Source: Escherichia coli (GTDB lineage Bacteria > Pseudomonadota > Gammaproteobacteria > Enterobacterales > Enterobacteriaceae). From it: a stretch of DNA of 64,000 nucleotides. The first letter of the stretch is position 1, and each line of letters opens with the position of its first letter. Made by a program: the position numbers and the translations under genes. The notes beneath the pieces are model-generated. The model made no database searches, had not been told where the DNA came from, and was given only the letters and a program-made list of their open reading frames with translations. Of the stretch, positions 29,421 to 48,551 are shown piece by piece. The stretch lies in assembly GCF_003019035.1 (NCBI RefSeq), contig NZ_CP027447.1; one strand, 5' to 3'.

Positions 29421-29497
29421 AACACTGGAGAATAAAATTTATCCGGTGAATGTAGTCGGATAACAAAAAGGAAAGAGGGGCCTAATCGACAGGGAAG

Positions 29498-29519
29498 GCC
29501 GCCCCGGATAGCGGGCGGC
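29498..29519 (-). terminator. GC-rich hairpin (gccgccc..gggcggc) downstream of yaiO
   Basis: 7-bp perfect stem followed on the minus-strand transcript by a T-rich run. Confidence 0.5.
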
Positions 29520-29527
29520 AGAAGCAA

Positions 29528-30301
29528 TCAGAATTTCCAGGTCAGATGGGCTGCAAGTTGCAGACCGTTATAATCATCGGTTGGGGTGTCGTACCACACT
29601 TTACCTGCCGTCAGCCCGAGATTAAGTTGCTCAGTCAGCGGTTGAATACGTTGCAGACTGACGCTCTTCATGCTGCCGTAGCGTGTTTCTGGCGTCCAGT
29701 CATAGGTGTAAGCGCCTGTTCCGCGGCTTAGCCATAGTTGCGTATAACCAGTGCCGCGCGGGTCATTCAGACGCACGGAAATCATATTGCTGTAACTACC
29801 ACCTGCATCGCTGGAGTCATAATGGGTATAGCGGTAGCTGGAGATCACCGGGCCAGTATAGAGGGATACGCCGCCTTGCCAGGCATCGACTTCGACATCA
29901 TCGTAATATTTAGTGTAGCGATAACCGGTCGTGAAAAGCGTTTTTGGCAACAGGGCCAGGTTAATATCCTGACGAAAATCCTGGCGGGCAAAGACCGGCG
30001 TATTATCCGCAAAGGCAATACCCGTTCGGGTTGTCAGCCAGTTATTCCATTTATACCAGACCGCACCCTGACCGCGAGTGGCATTGAAATGTTCAGTTTC
30101 ATAATCACGACGCCCCTGGGAAAGATTAAAAAGCAGCGTTGCGTTTTCAACTTTCGCCACCAGTTCAGCATACGCTAAATTACGATTGCCATGATCGCCA
30201 GAATAATCGGTAAAATCGTAGCCCGCGGTAATGGAAGTTAACCCGGCATAAGCGGGCAATGTGCTAAAAATGGCCGCCGCTAATAACGTCCGTTTTATCA
30301 T
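29528..30301 (-). CDS. yaiO: outer-membrane beta-barrel protein YaiO
   Basis: 257-aa ORF with signal peptide and C-terminal aromatic residue (…HLTWKF). Confidence 0.9.
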   Translation of the reverse strand: MIKRTLLAAAIFSTLPAYAGLTSITAGYDFTDYSGDHGNRNLAYAELVAKVENATLLFNLSQGRRDYETEHFNATRGQGAVWYKWNNWLTTRTGIAFADNTPVFARQDFRQDINLALLPKTLFTTGYRYTKYYDDVEVDAWQGGVSLYTGPVISSYRYTHYDSSDAGGSYSNMISVRLNDPRGTGYTQLWLSRGTGAYTYDWTPETRYGSMKSVSLQRIQPLTEQLNLGLTAGKVWYDTPTDDYNGLQLAAHLTWKF

Positions 30302-30302
30302 T

Positions 30303-31013
30303 TTAATCTCCTGTACGGATAAGTTCTTGTCGGAGTGAATAAGTTCCGGTAGGTAAATTACGTTCTACAATCACGCGCGGGCCAAGTTGCGTGTTCGGGG
30401 AAATAATTCGCCCAGGCAAAATAATAACTTGTACGCCAAGGCGTGAACGCTGTCCGATATAACAACCTAATTTATCGCATCCGGTAGCGATAATTCCCTC
30501 TGGAGTTCGAACAGACACGGGCTGTTCATCCAGACGATGATTACTGGTACGTACTTGTGCGCCCAAATATGCCTGGTTTGCGACTACCGAGTCGGCAATA
30601 AAACATTGCGGACCAATCGTTGCTTCCGCTTCAATAACCGCATTTTTAATTTCGGTGGCGAAACCAATTTTTACGCCATTGCTGATTATTGTGCCAGGAC
30701 GAATAAACGCATAATTACCTATCAGGCAGTTTGCGCCAATCACTACCGGACCCTGAATAACGGCACCGTGACAAATACGGGTATTCGCGCCGATAACAAC
30801 TTCACCTGCAGTTTCATCAATAATTACCTGGTCTGCAATCTGAATATTTTTCTCTTTAACATTAAGCTTCAGAAAGTTTTTCAGTTCCTGTGACAGAAGG
30901 TTGGGAATAAGCGGTTGACGCTTCCACCAGTGCGGAATAGCGGGTGGGTTTGTCGCGCTGAGGTTCGCGTCCAGTAAAAAAGGCAATAAGTCCATAAATA
31001 ATCCAGATGGCAT
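30303..31013 (-). CDS. yaiX: hexapeptide-repeat (left-handed beta-helix) acyl/acetyltransferase, uninterrupted
   Basis: Repeated [LIV]-G-x-x-x-x hexapeptides across the ORF; N-terminal 50 codons overlap the yaiP 3' end in another frame, so the true start is uncertain. Confidence 0.75.
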   Translation of the reverse strand: MPSGLFMDLLPFLLDANLSATNPPAIPHWWKRQPLIPNLLSQELKNFLKLNVKEKNIQIADQVIIDETAGEVVIGANTRICHGAVIQGPVVIGANCLIGNYAFIRPGTIISNGVKIGFATEIKNAVIEAEATIGPQCFIADSVVANQAYLGAQVRTSNHRLDEQPVSVRTPEGIIATGCDKLGCYIGQRSRLGVQVIILPGRIISPNTQLGPRVIVERNLPTGTYSLRQELIRTGD

Positions 31014-32058
31014 AAGCTAATAATACATACACAACGGAAAGCGGCGCTAAAGGCACCAACAACCAGCAACGATGAAACCAGGCGCTAAAAGCACCAATAA
31101 CACAAACTACGCCGACCCAGATAAGCGGAAACATTGCCAACACCACACCATGCGGCCCGGTGGTGATGAATTCATTAAACCAGGTAGTGAGATAAATCCC
31201 AACGCCATAAAGCACAACCAACAGCATAGGAAATATACTGAAGATACCGAAGCGGCTAAATAAAAGTCTTTTATGCAGGCGCATACAGACCGCGTAGCCC
31301 ACAATCCAACGCCGCCAGCGACGCCATTCCTCACGCGGGCTGTTGCATTCCTGTGGGTATACGATGCAGCGATTCGCCTGCCGAATACGATAGCCGTTTG
31401 CCACCAATGTCCAGGTGAGATCAAGGTCTTCGACTTTAGTACGATCAGAGAAACCGAACTTACGCAATACATCAGTACGGAACATCCCGCAGGCACCGCT
31501 GATAATAAACGGTGCGCCGCCCAGGAGCTGCTGTAGCGTGCGCTTCATAACAATCATCGGCAACTTTACGGTCGCGCGGATGTGCGGTAACAGCCCCGCG
31601 CCTTTCAACGCAGTAGAGGGAATGCCGCCTACGGCATCAGCACCGCGCTCAATTTCTGCCAGCATATAGCCCATTCCGTCTTGATCGGGCGGAACATAGG
31701 TGTCGGCATCACTTAAAAAAACCTGGTCGCAGGTGGCGTAATTGAGGCCATTCATCAGCGCACCACCTTTACCGGTATTTTTTTGCGTGACGGCAACAAA
31801 GCGGTCGCCCCATTTGCGTTTGACTTCCGCCATGACCGCTTCGGTATTGTCCGTGGAGCCGTCGTTAACGCAAATTACCCGGCAAAAATAAGGGTTACGC
31901 AGCAGATTATCCAGTGACTGCGCCAGACACGGGCCTTCGTTATAAGCAGGTATAATGGCGTCAATACAGCCTTTTTTTTGGCTGGGCTTACGCCTTAACG
32001 TACTCAGGAACCATAGCAATATTGCTACGGCCATACAGATAAATATCCAGGTTTTCAT
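30862..32058 (-). CDS. yaiP: family-2 glycosyltransferase with membrane-embedded C-terminal domain
   Basis: 398-aa ORF with N-terminal TM helix, DxD (LSDAD), an EWRRW motif resembling Q-x-x-R-W of processive GT2 synthases, and three C-terminal TM segments. Confidence 0.88.
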   Translation of the reverse strand: MKTWIFICMAVAILLWFLSTLRRKPSQKKGCIDAIIPAYNEGPCLAQSLDNLLRNPYFCRVICVNDGSTDNTEAVMAEVKRKWGDRFVAVTQKNTGKGGALMNGLNYATCDQVFLSDADTYVPPDQDGMGYMLAEIERGADAVGGIPSTALKGAGLLPHIRATVKLPMIVMKRTLQQLLGGAPFIISGACGMFRTDVLRKFGFSDRTKVEDLDLTWTLVANGYRIRQANRCIVYPQECNSPREEWRRWRRWIVGYAVCMRLHKRLLFSRFGIFSIFPMLLVVLYGVGIYLTTWFNEFITTGPHGVVLAMFPLIWVGVVCVIGAFSAWFHRCWLLVPLAPLSVVYVLLAYAIWIIYGLIAFFTGREPQRDKPTRYSALVEASTAYSQPSVTGTEKLSEA

Positions 32059-32067
32059 GCAATTTGC

Positions 32068-32739
32068 TCAAAGAATCATTTTATGAATTACAAAGCCTTC
32101 ACCCAGATCGCTATTGACCTGTTGCCCGCGAAATTGTGCAACTGCACGCAGGCGATCATGACGCATATAATCGCGTCGTTCCTGGCTTTTATGTTTTTTT
32201 AATGCAGCAAGTTTGGCTGTGAAATATTCTTCTTTAACGGATTCAAAAACCTGAGGCATAAATGAAAGCCAGGTACTCGGGGTTTCGTAGCCGAGAATTT
32301 GTGGAATAGTTCGGCAGGCAACCATTGAGGCTTGATAGACTGCAAGATGATCCTGATGGCGGTCAGCATCATGCATGGTGTATACACGAATGATTTCTAC
32401 ATCAGACGGAATTTGATTTTTAATGATGTCTTCCAGGGCGGAAATCATATCATTGAGCTGTAAATGAGCGCGGGTGTCAGCAAAATTAAGATGAATAGTT
32501 TGGTGGCACCCTAATATCTTTAGGGCGTTGCGCGATTCTTCATGGCGATCGATTATTCCATCTGTGCCAGAGTTGCCGGTAGTCATCACCACGGCTGCGA
32601 TATAAATTCCTTTTTGCGCAAGACGAGCAAGCGATGCGCCACAGCCTAATTCTATATCGTCAGGATGTGCGCCAATAGCAAGGATACCCTTTCTTTTATT
32701 TGCCGAAGAAAGGAGGGCTGAATCTAAAACCTTATCCAC
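32068..32739 (-). CDS. yaiS: PIG-L/LmbE-family N-acetylglucosaminyl deacetylase-like protein
   Basis: 223-aa ORF with LmbE-type motif ILAIGAHPDDIELGCG; 10 bp upstream of yaiP. Confidence 0.85.
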   Translation of the reverse strand: MDKVLDSALLSSANKRKGILAIGAHPDDIELGCGASLARLAQKGIYIAAVVMTTGNSGTDGIIDRHEESRNALKILGCHQTIHLNFADTRAHLQLNDMISALEDIIKNQIPSDVEIIRVYTMHDADRHQDHLAVYQASMVACRTIPQILGYETPSTWLSFMPQVFESVKEEYFTAKLAALKKHKSQERRDYMRHDRLRAVAQFRGQQVNSDLGEGFVIHKMIL

Positions 32740-33354
32740 TTAATGACACTCCATTTTATTTATTATACTACAAGCACAACGATGCACTCAGAGACGTAAT
32801 CTCTGGCGCAGCCAGATGCTAATTTATAAGTGTTAAATGTTGCTAATAATTGAAAAGCCAGGGCTTTCAGATCCGGGGGGGCGACTGGTTAATGTTTTTA
32901 TGCAATTCATATGTTAAGTGTTTGTATGTTTGGTATGTATAGTTATTTTGTTTTATACATTGTATTTAGATGTGATTTAGTTTGTCAATTAATTGCATTT
33001 AAAAAATATGTTCTGTGAACAAGTATTGTTTATATACATTATGTGAATGTAATATGCGAGTGATTGAGAATGATACAGTGATATATATAATGCGAATATA
33101 ATAGTTTTATTATATGTATTGATATTGATAGAAATAATGAAGTAATAAATCTCGTAATGTGGTTGTTTATGCATCACTAAAATGAAGTGTAGTAATTTTC
33201 CCAATTGTTAGAACGGAGTAATTGCATATTTAATCTTTCCTTTGCCGTTTTTTTGCTAAGAATAAAATCATCTGTGCGATAACGACTAATTCTTTTAATG
33301 AATGTTTTTATTCCTGAATACTGCTCCCATAACAAGACAGGGGAGCAGACAATC

Positions 33355-34317
33355 ATGGCAATTTCATCGCGTAACACACTTCTTGCCGCACTGGCATTCA
33401 TCGCTTTTCAGGCACAGGCGGTGAACGTCACCGTGGCGTATCAAACCTCAGCCGAACCGGCGAAAGTGGCTCAGGCCGACAACACCTTTGCTAAAGAAAG
33501 CGGAGCAACCGTGGACTGGCGTAAGTTTGACAGCGGAGCCAGCATCGTGCGGGCGCTGGCTTCAGGCGACGTGCAAATCGGCAACCTCGGTTCCAGCCCG
33601 TTAGCGGTTGCAACCAGCCAACAGGTGCCGATTGAAGTCTTCTTGCTGGCGTCAAAACTGGGTAACTCCGAAGCGCTGGTGGTAAAGAAAACTATCAGTA
33701 AACCGGAAGACTTGATTGGTAAACGCATCGCCGTACCGTTTATCTCCACCACCCACTACAGCCTGCTGGCGGCGCTGAAACACTGGGGTATTAAACCCGG
33801 GCAAGTGGAGATTGTGAACCTGCAGCCGCCCGCGATTATCGCCGCATGGCAGCGGGGAGACATTGATGGTGCTTATGTCTGGGCACCGGCGGTTAACGCC
33901 ATGGAAAAAGATGGCAAGGTGCTGACCGATTCTGAACAGGTCGGGCAGTGGGGCGCGCCGACACTGGACGTCTGGGTCGTGCGGAAAGATTTTGCCGAGA
34001 AACATCCAGAGGTCGTGAAAGCGTTCGCCAAAAGCGCCATCGATGCTCAGCAACCGTACATTGCTAACCCAGACGTGTGGCTGAAACAGCCGGAAAACAT
34101 CAGCAAACTGGCGCGTTTAAGCGGCGTGCCTGAAGGTGACGTTCCGGGGCTGGTGAAGGGGAATACCTATCTGACGCAGCAGCAACAAACGGCAGAACTG
34201 ACCGGACCGGTGAATAAAGCGATCATCGATACCGCGCAGTTTTTGAAAGATCAGGGCAAAGTCCCTGCCGTGGCGAATGATTACAGCCAGTACGTGACCT
34301 CGCGCTTCGTGCAATAA
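33355..34317 (+). CDS. tauA: taurine ABC transporter, periplasmic binding protein
   Basis: 320 aa from MAISSRNTLLAALAFIAFQAQA (signal peptide). Confidence 0.95.
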   Translation: MAISSRNTLLAALAFIAFQAQAVNVTVAYQTSAEPAKVAQADNTFAKESGATVDWRKFDSGASIVRALASGDVQIGNLGSSPLAVATSQQVPIEVFLLASKLGNSEALVVKKTISKPEDLIGKRIAVPFISTTHYSLLAALKHWGIKPGQVEIVNLQPPAIIAAWQRGDIDGAYVWAPAVNAMEKDGKVLTDSEQVGQWGAPTLDVWVVRKDFAEKHPEVVKAFAKSAIDAQQPYIANPDVWLKQPENISKLARLSGVPEGDVPGLVKGNTYLTQQQQTAELTGPVNKAIIDTAQFLKDQGKVPAVANDYSQYVTSRFVQ

Positions 34318-37783: not shown

Positions 37784-38308
37784 GGTCTGCCTGATGTTTG
37801 TGGAATCGAGGGGCATAGTATACCTGAAGCAGGGTAGGGATGTTTTACGAAAGTTGTCGCGATGTTGACAAGAAGAGAATGGAAGAGAGGCCAGGACATC
37901 TTTGTAATAGAAATAGCAATAATTTCATATTCACTGAAAATATTTTTAATTTTTATTTATAGTCATGAATTATTGTTTTTGGGGATTTGGTTGCGTTATC
38001 AAAAACGGAATGATTTAAAGTTCATTGGTTATTGATAGATTATTTGTCTGGTTTGTGTGTTTGATATTTTAAATGCATATGCTTTAAAAATGGAAATCCT
38101 GTTAACTTGTTGAAACATTAAGCCTTTATCAATTTTTTCTTTGTGTGTTACTCCGTGCTTTATATATGTCCGTAACCGGACTTCGGGGAAAGAATAATTG
38201 AACCATTCCTCAATAACGCCGCATAATCGTTAGCGCGAAACATAATATGTTTTCTATGCATTGATAATTGATGGATCAACTTATTACGTCCCTGAGGAGG
38301 GATGACAA

Positions 38309-47828: not shown

Positions 47829-48290
47829 CTTAAAAACCTATCCCGTCTAACACAAAGTGCATACATTACCACGACAAAACGGGGGATTCGCGGCCTTCTG
47901 ACAGAATGTTGCAATCTTCTGCTGACAAAGCGTGCAACGTACTGGTGAAGAAAGTGCGTTATCTCAATGATGTGCGCAAGATCACAAAAATGATGAACGG
48001 GAAGCTAATTTATTCCTGGCTTGTATGGCCATGCAGTGAGTTTTTTTCTCTTAATTATAAGTTAACGAAGAGAATATATTTCATAACTTTTATTTATAAT
48101 AAAGGTTGATAATTAAAAGCCTATATTTTGTGTGGGTAATTATTAAAATAAGAGAAACGTTTCGCTGGTAATCAAACAAAAAATATTTGCGCAAAGTATT
48201 TCCTTTGTCATAAAAATAATACTTCCAGACACTATGAAGTTGTGAAACATAATGTTAACTTCTCCATACTTTGGATAAGGAAATACAGAC

Positions 48291-48551
48291 ATGAAAAATC
48301 TCATTGCTGAGTTGTTATTTAAGCTTGCCCAAAAAGAAGAAGAGTCGAAAGAACTGTGTGCGCAGGTAGAAGCTTTGGAGATTATCGTCACGGCAATGCT
48401 TCGCAATATGGCGCAAAATGATCAACAGCGGTTGATTGATCAGGTAGAGGGGGCGCTGTACGAGGTAAAGCCCGATGCCAGCATTCCTGACGACGATACG
48501 GAGCTGCTGCGCGATTACGTAAAGAAGTTATTGAGGCATCCTCGTCAGTAA
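48291..48551 (+). CDS. iraP: anti-adaptor protein IraP (stabilises RpoS)
   Basis: 86-aa ORF beginning [30 protein letters not shown]; upstream of phoA. Confidence 0.92.

Follow-up and report, generated by a model that had tools for sequence, protein, structure and literature searches.

The window analysed here is a stretch of 64,000 nucleotides of Escherichia coli DNA in which the divergent genes yaiS (- strand) and tauA (+ strand) are separated by a gap at 32740-33354, as placed by the open reading frame list and by the RefSeq annotation of a near-identical strain. The gap runs from start codon to start codon: yaiS begins at 32739 (- strand) and tauA, with an ATG, at 33355. To its left lies the yaiS operon, a sugar-polymer operon that encodes a PIG-L deacetylase (yaiS), a GT2 glycosyltransferase (yaiP), a hexapeptide acyltransferase (yaiX) and an outer-membrane beta-barrel (yaiO); to its right, tauA opens tauABCD. 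The gap of K-12 MG1655 (NC_000913.3) is collinear and also 615 bp long, and the two differ by 13 substitutions and 0 indels. An 821-bp query spanning the gap found matches in 5,419 of 5,426 complete genomes, with 100% identity to strain FDAARGOS_497, from which the whole window differs at 290 of its 64,000 positions.

Of the annotated gaps in the window, 52 in all, this one is the longest, the runner-up being hemB/ehaB at 525 bp, and it is also exceptionally AT-rich: its GC content is 30.4%, where the window has 52.1% and the remaining gaps, pooled, have 43.1%. The lowest-GC 300-bp stretch in the whole 64 kb begins at 32889, within the gap, and reaches 23.0% (window mean 52.1%, sd 5.7%). The original prediction, which had picked out the region as the largest non-coding gap and as strongly AT-rich, was right on both counts, and the AT run that it quoted is present at ~33081-33131. 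Base composition in the AT-rich core is also skewed, G outnumbering C by 55 to 17 on the + strand. The features discussed below are collected in Table 1.

Table 1. Features in and beside the yaiS/tauA gap (window positions).
Feature	Position	Strand	Description
yaiS operon, left-side target	29528..32739	-	yaiS, yaiP, yaiX, yaiO
yaiS/tauA intergenic region	32740..33354		615 bp, 30.4% GC; MG1655 384617-385231
Predicted yaiS 5' leader	32740..32951	-	~212 nt, from the inferred start
AT-rich core	32889..33203		23-24% GC; promoter island 383994_309
Phylogenetic footprint over yaiS promoter	~32940..33017	-	~75 bp, ~87% identity E. coli/E. fergusonii
yaiS-operon core promoter	32959..32988	-	-35 TTGACA 32988-32983, 18-bp spacer, -10 TACAAT 32964-32959
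Promoter-like site TTGAGA-16-TATAAT	33064..33091	+	own scan; TACAAT in K-12, TGCAAT in B2-type alleles
Upstream activator zone, tauA	33217..33262	+	-112 to -68 from start; holds conserved TTTGCCGnTTTTTTnCTAAnAA 33241-33262
tauA core promoter	33287..33329	+	-35 zone TAATTCTTTTAAT 33287-33299; -10 AATACT 33317-33322; start A 33329
Inverted repeat CTGCTCCC-N12-GGGAGCAG	33321..33348	+	8-bp arms straddling the tauA start; dG -14.5 kcal/mol, z -5.6

On the yaiS side, our promoter scan returned TTGACA-18-TACAAT, a match to 11 of the 12 consensus positions. Predicted promoters in Shimada 2014 (PMC3946193) carry identical hexamers for yaiS, together with TTGAGA-16-TACAAT on the tauA side. Both yaiS hexamers are kept in all E. 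coli alleles, in E. whittamii and in E. fergusonii. Upstream of them, the stretch 32989-33012 is A/T-rich and resembles an UP element. When the gap was aligned across E. coli K-12-type and B2-type alleles, E. whittamii and E. fergusonii, the promoter proved to sit in a phylogenetic footprint that spans about -65 to +12, while the gap sequence on either side is barely alignable with E. fergusonii. Among E. coli alleles, too, 50-bp bins of the footprint have an identity of 0.90-1.0 against 0.64-0.86 in the adjoining bins. We take this element as the real yaiS-operon promoter; the scan, the published listing and the footprint all agree with the original prediction that the gap holds a promoter of the yaiS cluster.

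Transcription from these hexamers is predicted to start near 32952 (MG1655 ~384829). The leader that would result includes a hypervariable patch, 32819-32898, where 10 of the 13 substitutions relative to MG1655 are concentrated; no other part of the gap varies as much. A GC-rich hairpin at ~32853-32868 in this predicted leader is not conserved, and the fold of the leader is not significant against shuffled sequences (z -0.62).

The tauA promoter can be anchored to a mapped start. In published cappable-seq data, TSS_385206_+ (U00096.3) is present in wild type, delta-hns and delta-hns pRok (Forrest 2022, PMC8894471), and it corresponds to window position 33329, 26 nt upstream of the tauA ATG. 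It is the only + strand start in the gap in wild type and delta-hns; TSS_384653 appears as an extra start in delta-hns with Rok (PMC8894471). To follow the promoter across relatives, 200 bp upstream of tauA were aligned from 11 sequences of 9 species: E. coli locus states A, B and C (described below), E. whittamii, E. fergusonii, Enterobacter, Citrobacter sedlakii, Klebsiella, Kluyvera, Pseudocitrobacter and Scandinavium. The -10 AATACT, which ends 7 nt upstream of the start, is invariant in all 11 sequences, as is AATACTGC (-10, 33317-33322), and the -35-zone TAATTCyTTTA is nearly invariant around an invariant TAATT core. Farther upstream, TTTTTTnCTAAnAA is nearly invariant within -112 to -68, and TTTGCCGnTTTTTTnCTAAnAA is invariant or nearly so across the alignment. 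Work by van der Ploeg in 1997 reportedly dissected the tauA promoter, and is said to have found there a single Cbl footprint, at -112 to -68. Placed by these distances, 33217-33262 is what we take to be that footprint interval. The expectation of a sulfate-starvation tauA promoter of the Cbl/CysB type is upheld by the start 26 nt from the ATG and by a -10, a -35 zone and a putative Cbl zone conserved in 9 species.

Between the two promoters lies a segment with a published record of its own. The entry "383994_309 yaiS(-)/tauA(+)" is one of the 78 E. coli promoter islands in Table 1 of Panyukov and Ozoline 2013 (PMC3661553), and its H-NS class, "A", stands for binding in the Grainger, Oshima and Kahramanoglou data alike (PMC3661553). 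U00096.2 and U00096.3 differ by an offset of 776 bp, which puts the island, given in U00096.2 coordinates, at window ~32893-33201, i.e. on the AT-rich core. In genomic SELEX, sigma70 holoenzyme binds the spacer in vitro, with an HNS flag (Shimada 2014, PMC3946193), and a sigma38 holoenzyme peak lies at 383868 (Shimada 2017).

Expression data bear on the genes at both ends. In Forrest 2022 (PMC8894471), yaiO, yaiP and yaiS are classed as H-NS bound, and delta-hns RNA-seq gives a logFC of 3.85 for yaiS (~14-fold, P 6e-20), 2.84 for yaiP and 1.06 for yaiO. The logFC of tauA in the same data is 1.46, and no significant change is seen for tauB-D, ssuE or cbl (PMC8894471), which weakened the idea of Cbl as a counter-silencer of H-NS. 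The tauABCD transcription unit is itself flagged as H-NS bound (Higashi 2016, PMC4720273). Supplementary Data 3 of Forrest 2022 (PMC8894471), derived from Kahramanoglou ChIP-seq, further lists an H-NS-bound interval at 383841-384686 in an unstated coordinate system. We think that U00096.2 applies, in which case the interval begins at the first base of the gap and extends 230 bp into tauA; under U00096.3 it would cover the yaiS coding region and extend over no more than 70 bp of the gap. The placement of H-NS on the island by the Panyukov table (PMC3661553) is independent of this question. The occupancy data come from K-12, SE11 or SE15, and for K-12 the original prediction of H-NS-bound DNA is confirmed by three independent ChIP data sets and by the rise of yaiS and yaiP in delta-hns. 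In composition, too, the DNA is of the kind expected for an H-NS locus, with an AT content far above average (23% GC in the core and 30.4% in the gap vs 52.1% in the window).

Promoter-like sites are dense in the gap. By our consensus scan, which is not PlatProm, they number 26/kb compared with 5.2/kb in the window, a five-fold difference, and the gap ties with the top 300-bp window. Dinucleotide shuffles of the gap give 21 +/- 5 sites where 16 are observed. Since the site density is no higher than in the shuffles, the "island" is best read as a by-product of composition and not as a selected promoter array. The + strand candidate in the core, TTGAGA-16-TATAAT, is not conserved in E. fergusonii and is probably non-productive; from MG1655 384654 to 385205 the published lists of + strand cappable-seq starts have no entry in wild type or delta-hns. 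The core combines published holoenzyme binding in vitro with no + strand start site in either strain, as judged from the + strand lists. Smaller elements were also considered. The octamer AATTGCAT (32900 inverted, 32991, 33220) was rejected as a factor site, being not conserved in E. fergusonii, and a CRP-like reading of TGTGATTTAGTTTGTCA was rejected by eye on a mismatched right half-site. A search of the gap for repeats, direct or inverted, that a mobile element might have left behind yielded just two short imperfect inverted repeats.

Neither a high-affinity motif nor curvature is obligatory for H-NS binding, and the gap stands out in neither respect. The H-NS motif of Lang 2007, TCGATAAATT, has a single match with 2 mismatches in the gap (32985), which is the background rate, so motif prediction, proposed as a check, returned one weak site only. 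The original prediction had also described the DNA as curved, which would allow curvature, and not AT content, to recruit H-NS. A/T tracts of at least 4 bases are indeed about twice as frequent in the gap as in the window (21/kb vs 9.4/kb), and special structural properties are ascribed to promoter islands by Panyukov and Ozoline (PMC3661553). However, a simple wedge-model profile, which is a weak test, is not elevated: the gap mean is 7.6 degrees per helical turn vs 8.2 for the window, its maximum is 17.1 against a window 99th percentile of 19.6, and the window's ten highest peaks all fall outside the gap. The AT richness is moreover of the TpA/TGTA type rather than one of phased A-tracts. 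We consider recruitment by intrinsic curvature improbable.

A long gap with one strong promoter-like site per strand might also hide a gene, as the original prediction suggested for both a small RNA and a small protein. For an independent small RNA, for example one expressed under sulfur limitation, a suggestive element is on the - strand, where a 5-bp hairpin is followed by UUUUCAAUUAUU ~85-100 nt past the predicted yaiS start, so that a short leader RNA is conceivable. Yet this hairpin lies in the most variable part of the gap and its stem is lost in B2-type alleles. A permissive Rfam scan of 32000-34000 came back empty at E<=10, a search of both strands for terminator-like sites gave none in the gap, and the putative + strand transcript from TTGAGA-16-TATAAT folds no differently from its shuffles (z -0.04), as does the yaiS leader. 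Cappable-seq of the + strand, in wild type and delta-hns, records the tauA start only, and the MG1655 RefSeq annotation has no feature in the gap. On this evidence a small RNA gene is very improbable indeed, the least credible of the readings that we weighed.

Hardly better placed is a small protein, whether free-standing or a yaiS leader peptide (uORF). All open reading frames of at least 20 aa in the gap were compared across six Escherichia alleles and E. fergusonii. The one oddity is a 25-codon ATG frame on the - strand (32910-32833) within the predicted yaiS leader, open at equal length in 5 of the 6 Escherichia alleles; E. fergusonii has an ATG at equal promoter distance, in a shared TTAACAyATG context, that opens a 19-codon frame. 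None of the candidates is preceded by a Shine-Dalgarno sequence, however, and the peptides are only ~40-50% identical where the DNA is 70-80% identical, meaning that nearly all changes are non-synonymous. With neither a Shine-Dalgarno sequence nor a conserved peptide, the 25-codon frame was given little weight. Frames of 71, 35, 28 and 25 aa are interrupted or lack a start in other alleles or in E. fergusonii. The 71-aa frame on the - strand was rejected as broken in every other allele, and the 35-aa and 20-aa + strand frames that overlap the conserved block run into a stop after a few codons in E. fergusonii, their changes being mostly non-synonymous. PGAP calls nothing in the gap in any sampled genome, there is no MG1655 small-protein entry in it, and the nearest validated small protein, ykiC, lies outside at 32083-32202. 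Neither half of the hidden-gene proposal is supported: the gap contains two genuine promoters, with no RNA or protein gene detected besides them.

Comparison across genomes places the gap in a variable locus. Together with yaiOXPS it forms one of three alternative alleles. State A, with the order frmR-yaiO-yaiX-yaiP-yaiS-gap-tauA, accounts for 78% of the genomes (4,243/5,426). In state B (595 genomes), frmR is joined to tauA via 305 bp. State C, which is that of 451 genomes, O157:H7 and O55:H7 among them, has genes for a response regulator, a MASE1 histidine kinase and an MFS transporter upstream of tauA, an arrangement also found in Enterobacter and C. sedlakii. The neighbour has the appearance of a horizontally acquired one, yaiOXPS being absent from 19% of E. 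coli genomes; these lack the whole segment and have tauABCD intact with a consensus-type promoter. Previous work likewise describes yaiO-yaiS as a strain-specific insertion beside tauA, present in K-12 and SE11 and absent from SE15 (Higashi 2016, PMC4720273).

Homology among the states is perfect from GAATACTGC on and motif-level just upstream, which sets the allele break just upstream of the tauA -10 hexamer. Over -150 to -1 of tauA, GC content is 31% in state A, 40-44% in states B and C, and 39-49% in other genera. The AT-enriched upstream variant is that of state A (78% of E. coli), and E. fergusonii and E. whittamii have it too; in states B and C the tauA promoter is of the family-consensus type. 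The yaiS-P-X-O module is intact in Citrobacter, Superficieibacter, Ignatzschineria and Lysobacter, and at four loci in Citrobacter and Superficieibacter the DNA upstream of yaiS is 200-400 bp long with 16-33% GC. Across genera these upstream regions are unalignable, with composition alone in common. What recurs with the yaiSPXO operon is composition, not sequence.

The right edge of the gap contains one further element, the inverted repeat of Table 1. Its left arm, CTGCTCCC (33321-33328), ends just 5' of the +1 at 33329, and its right arm, GGGAGCAG (33341-33348), contains the tauA Shine-Dalgarno GGAG (33342-33345); in RNA, the pairing partner of the latter is the anti-SD arm upstream of the start. 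The mapped tauA transcript, which begins at 33329, does not include the left arm and is unstructured. In a comparison of 10 sequences, pairing is possible in 86% of cells, vs 33-65% in slid controls, with no compensatory changes among them. Outside E. coli the fifth pair is a mismatch, and the inner stem is largely lost in E. fergusonii.

One tentative interpretation, which we hold to be rather unlikely, is that the repeat acts as a start-site-dependent translational insulator. Transcripts entering from upstream, be they spurious starts in the H-NS-bound island or read-through from neighbour genes in other locus states, would carry the anti-SD arm and might fold the ribosome-binding site into the -14.5 kcal/mol hairpin. 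Only transcripts from the Cbl-dependent +1, free of that arm, would then be translatable. The repeat data point towards insulation against upstream read-through, without proving it. If true, TauABCD synthesis would be tied to sulfate starvation whatever DNA adjoins the recombination-prone junction.

Taken together, the gap is most probably a composite divergent control region, known in K-12 as an H-NS-bound promoter island, and we give this reading a probability of about 85%. In its left third, the strong near-consensus sigma70 promoter would drive yaiS-yaiP-yaiX-yaiO on the - strand through the ~212-nt leader. The middle, ~300 bp at 23-24% GC, is bound by H-NS in the cell and by RNA polymerase in vitro; we infer that this AT core is the nucleation site for silencing, from which H-NS may spread and turn the yaiS promoter nearly off. 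The core itself appears to be under little sequence constraint, its composition presumably being what is retained. In the right third, the tauA promoter, with its weak -35 and its AATACT, would be activated by Cbl with CysB under sulfate starvation, with Cbl putatively at 33217-33262. The anatomy and the pattern of conservation were shown here, and the tauA start site, the H-NS occupancy and the delta-hns derepression are established in the literature. To our knowledge, yaiSPXO has no known counter-silencer and no condition known to induce it.

The closest competitor keeps most of this picture and denies the AT core a function of its own: it would be a neutral spacer carried along with the mobile yaiSPXO, binding H-NS and RNA polymerase through composition only. 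Several observations suit such a spacer. The core is the fastest-evolving segment within its 12-kb neighbourhood (75-85% identity vs 94-100% in flanking genes), and K-12-type and B2-type alleles differ there by a 9-bp indel as well as by sequence (64-88% identity, flanking genes again at 94-100%). Promoter-like density equals the expectation from composition, the upstream regions of yaiS in other genera are alike in composition and not in sequence, and the 19% of E. coli without the segment keep tauABCD intact. Yet the recurrence of low GC upstream of yaiS in unrelated Citrobacter and Superficieibacter sequences suggests that composition is maintained, and the operon is strongly derepressed without H-NS. 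We regard a functionless core as possible and clearly the less probable of the two. The sole difference between it and the composite control region is whether silencing is selected, a point that sequence data cannot settle.

The region is ordinary and already known, having been catalogued in 2009-2013 as a promoter island and H-NS target. Its value is as a clean example of one spacer serving two operons, one silenced and horizontally mobile, the other conserved and devoted to nutrient starvation. The comparative results obtained here are the three alleles that break just upstream of the tauA -10, the conserved yaiS promoter in fast-evolving AT-rich DNA, and the SD-occluding repeat. Alleles, promoter and repeat offer concrete constructs for asking how H-NS silencing is kept off a neighbouring operon.

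Three known systems meet at this locus. To promoter islands (e.g. appY, ssuE/elfA, leuL/leuO; Shavkunov 2009, PMC3661553) the gap is alike in AT richness and dense promoter-like sites, in RNA polymerase binding in vitro and H-NS binding in vivo, and in acquired neighbour genes. Promoter islands are also characterised by little productive transcription, and in the core of this gap no + strand start maps in wild type or delta-hns. There is no essential difference, although here the site density is wholly accounted for by composition and the yaiS promoter is a conserved near-consensus element, not one among many equivalent sites. As a sulfate-starvation promoter of the Cbl/CysB type (tauABCD, ssuEADCB), the right 140 bp of the gap are the tauA promoter itself, with a weak -35, a start 26 nt from the ATG and a conserved upstream zone at the position reported for the single Cbl site. 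State A is AT-enriched upstream of the -10, whereas states B and C are near the Enterobacteriaceae consensus. The ssuE promoter, of the same type, likewise abuts a catalogued promoter island (PMC3661553). With H-NS xenogeneic silencing (bgl, pga, LEE; PMC8894471) the locus shares a GC content below that of the host genome, occupancy that spreads from the regulatory region into the genes, a first gene up 14-fold in delta-hns, and IS1 insertions within the silenced region. It differs in that the silenced region here shares its spacer with the housekeeping-type, activator-dependent tauABCD, which is little changed by hns deletion.

The interval between frmR and tauA (window about 29446-33316) exists in three alternative states among 5,426 E. 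coli genomes. State A, which carries yaiOXPS and the divergent yaiS/tauA gap, accounts for 78%; state B, in which frmR is joined to tauA, for 11%; and state C, which encodes a response regulator, a MASE1 kinase and an MFS protein, for 8%. The gene arrangement of state C is common to Enterobacter and Citrobacter sedlakii. The state A genes encode a PIG-L deacetylase (yaiS), a GT2 synthase-like glycosyltransferase (yaiP), a hexapeptide acyltransferase (yaiX) and a YaiO outer-membrane barrel (yaiO), a gene content that looks like a self-contained module for the synthesis, modification and export of an exopolysaccharide. Complete clusters with the same gene order occur in Citrobacter, Superficieibacter, Ignatzschineria and Lysobacter (loci L013-L018), so yaiSPXO is horizontally mobile. 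C. braakii has two copies, one of which adjoins hemB with no tau operon in between.

The yaiS frame in the window (32068-32739, minus strand) is unbroken at 223 aa, and its product aligns over its full length with homologues from other genera; K-12 YaiS is shorter, at 185 aa. On the opposite strand, ykiC, a validated small gene, overlaps the 3' end of the full-length frame. In a near-identical strain and several others, PGAP calls yaiS a C-terminally incomplete pseudogene, despite the intact 223-aa frame present here.

Insertion sequences recur in this region. Several unrelated strains carry IS1 in or beside the AT-rich gap (NZ_CP086338.1; locus L005, 4288-4985; locus L006, 2273-2970 and 4288-4985), once as a simple insertion inside the gap and twice accompanied by a deletion that removes yaiS and part of the gap or of the 5' end of tauA. 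In K-12, yaiX is interrupted by IS2. The silenced AT-rich segment looks like an insertion hot spot. Separately, the hemB/ehaB gap and the stretch at 48041 are two further markedly AT-rich parts of the window.

Coordinates of genes, reading frames and AT-rich stretches in the window
Feature	Position	Strand	Description
yaiS-yaiP-yaiX-yaiO	29528-32739	-	
ykiC	32083-32202	+	validated small gene; antisense, overlaps 3' end of full-length yaiS ORF
25-codon ATG ORF	32833-32910	-	inside predicted yaiS leader
hemB/ehaB gap	37784-38308		525 bp, 34.7% GC; 27.7% over 300 bp
Stretch upstream of iraP	about 48041-48340		AT-rich 300 bp, 26.7% GC

Sequence differences within the gap are concentrated in the yaiS leader, where an 80-bp patch (32819-32898) holds 10 of the 13 that separate this strain from MG1655, the K-12 reference. 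The patch includes a G7 run (32875-32881) whose K-12 counterpart reads GTGGGTT. For the small ORF in the leader, no Shine-Dalgarno sequence was found. In E. fergusonii (locus L019, about 2435-2494) an ATG shares both the TTAACAyATG context and the distance from the promoter, and starts a 19-codon ORF; the two peptides, when compared, were unrelated. The octamer AATTGCAT occurs in the gap at 32900 (inverted), 32991 and 33220 (both direct), the copies at 32900 and 32991 flanking the yaiS core promoter as parts of a 21-nt imperfect inverted repeat. This octamer is not conserved in E. fergusonii.

On the opposite side of the gap, an inverted repeat, CTGCTCCC/GGGAGCAG (33321-33348), spans the tauA transcription start. 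Its anti-Shine-Dalgarno arm lies immediately upstream of +1, so occlusion of the ribosome-binding site would be possible only in transcripts arriving from upstream. Pairing potential is retained in most Enterobacteriaceae, and covariation was absent across those compared. Further upstream, window position 33243 (MG1655 385120) is A in K-12, whereas T stands there in this strain, in every other E. coli allele and in the remaining species examined. The base belongs to the conserved motif CCTTTGCCG, inside the stretch of the tauA promoter to which we assign the putative Cbl site.

Next to ssuEADCB, the other operon that depends on Cbl, there is likewise an H-NS-bound promoter island, 996773_328 at ssuE/elfA (PMC3661553, Table 1). 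Deletion of hns raises elfA expression (logFC 2.46), with no significant change in ssuE (PMC8894471). A further promoter island, 1332795_340 (cysB/ymiA), lies downstream of cysB (PMC3661553, Table 1).
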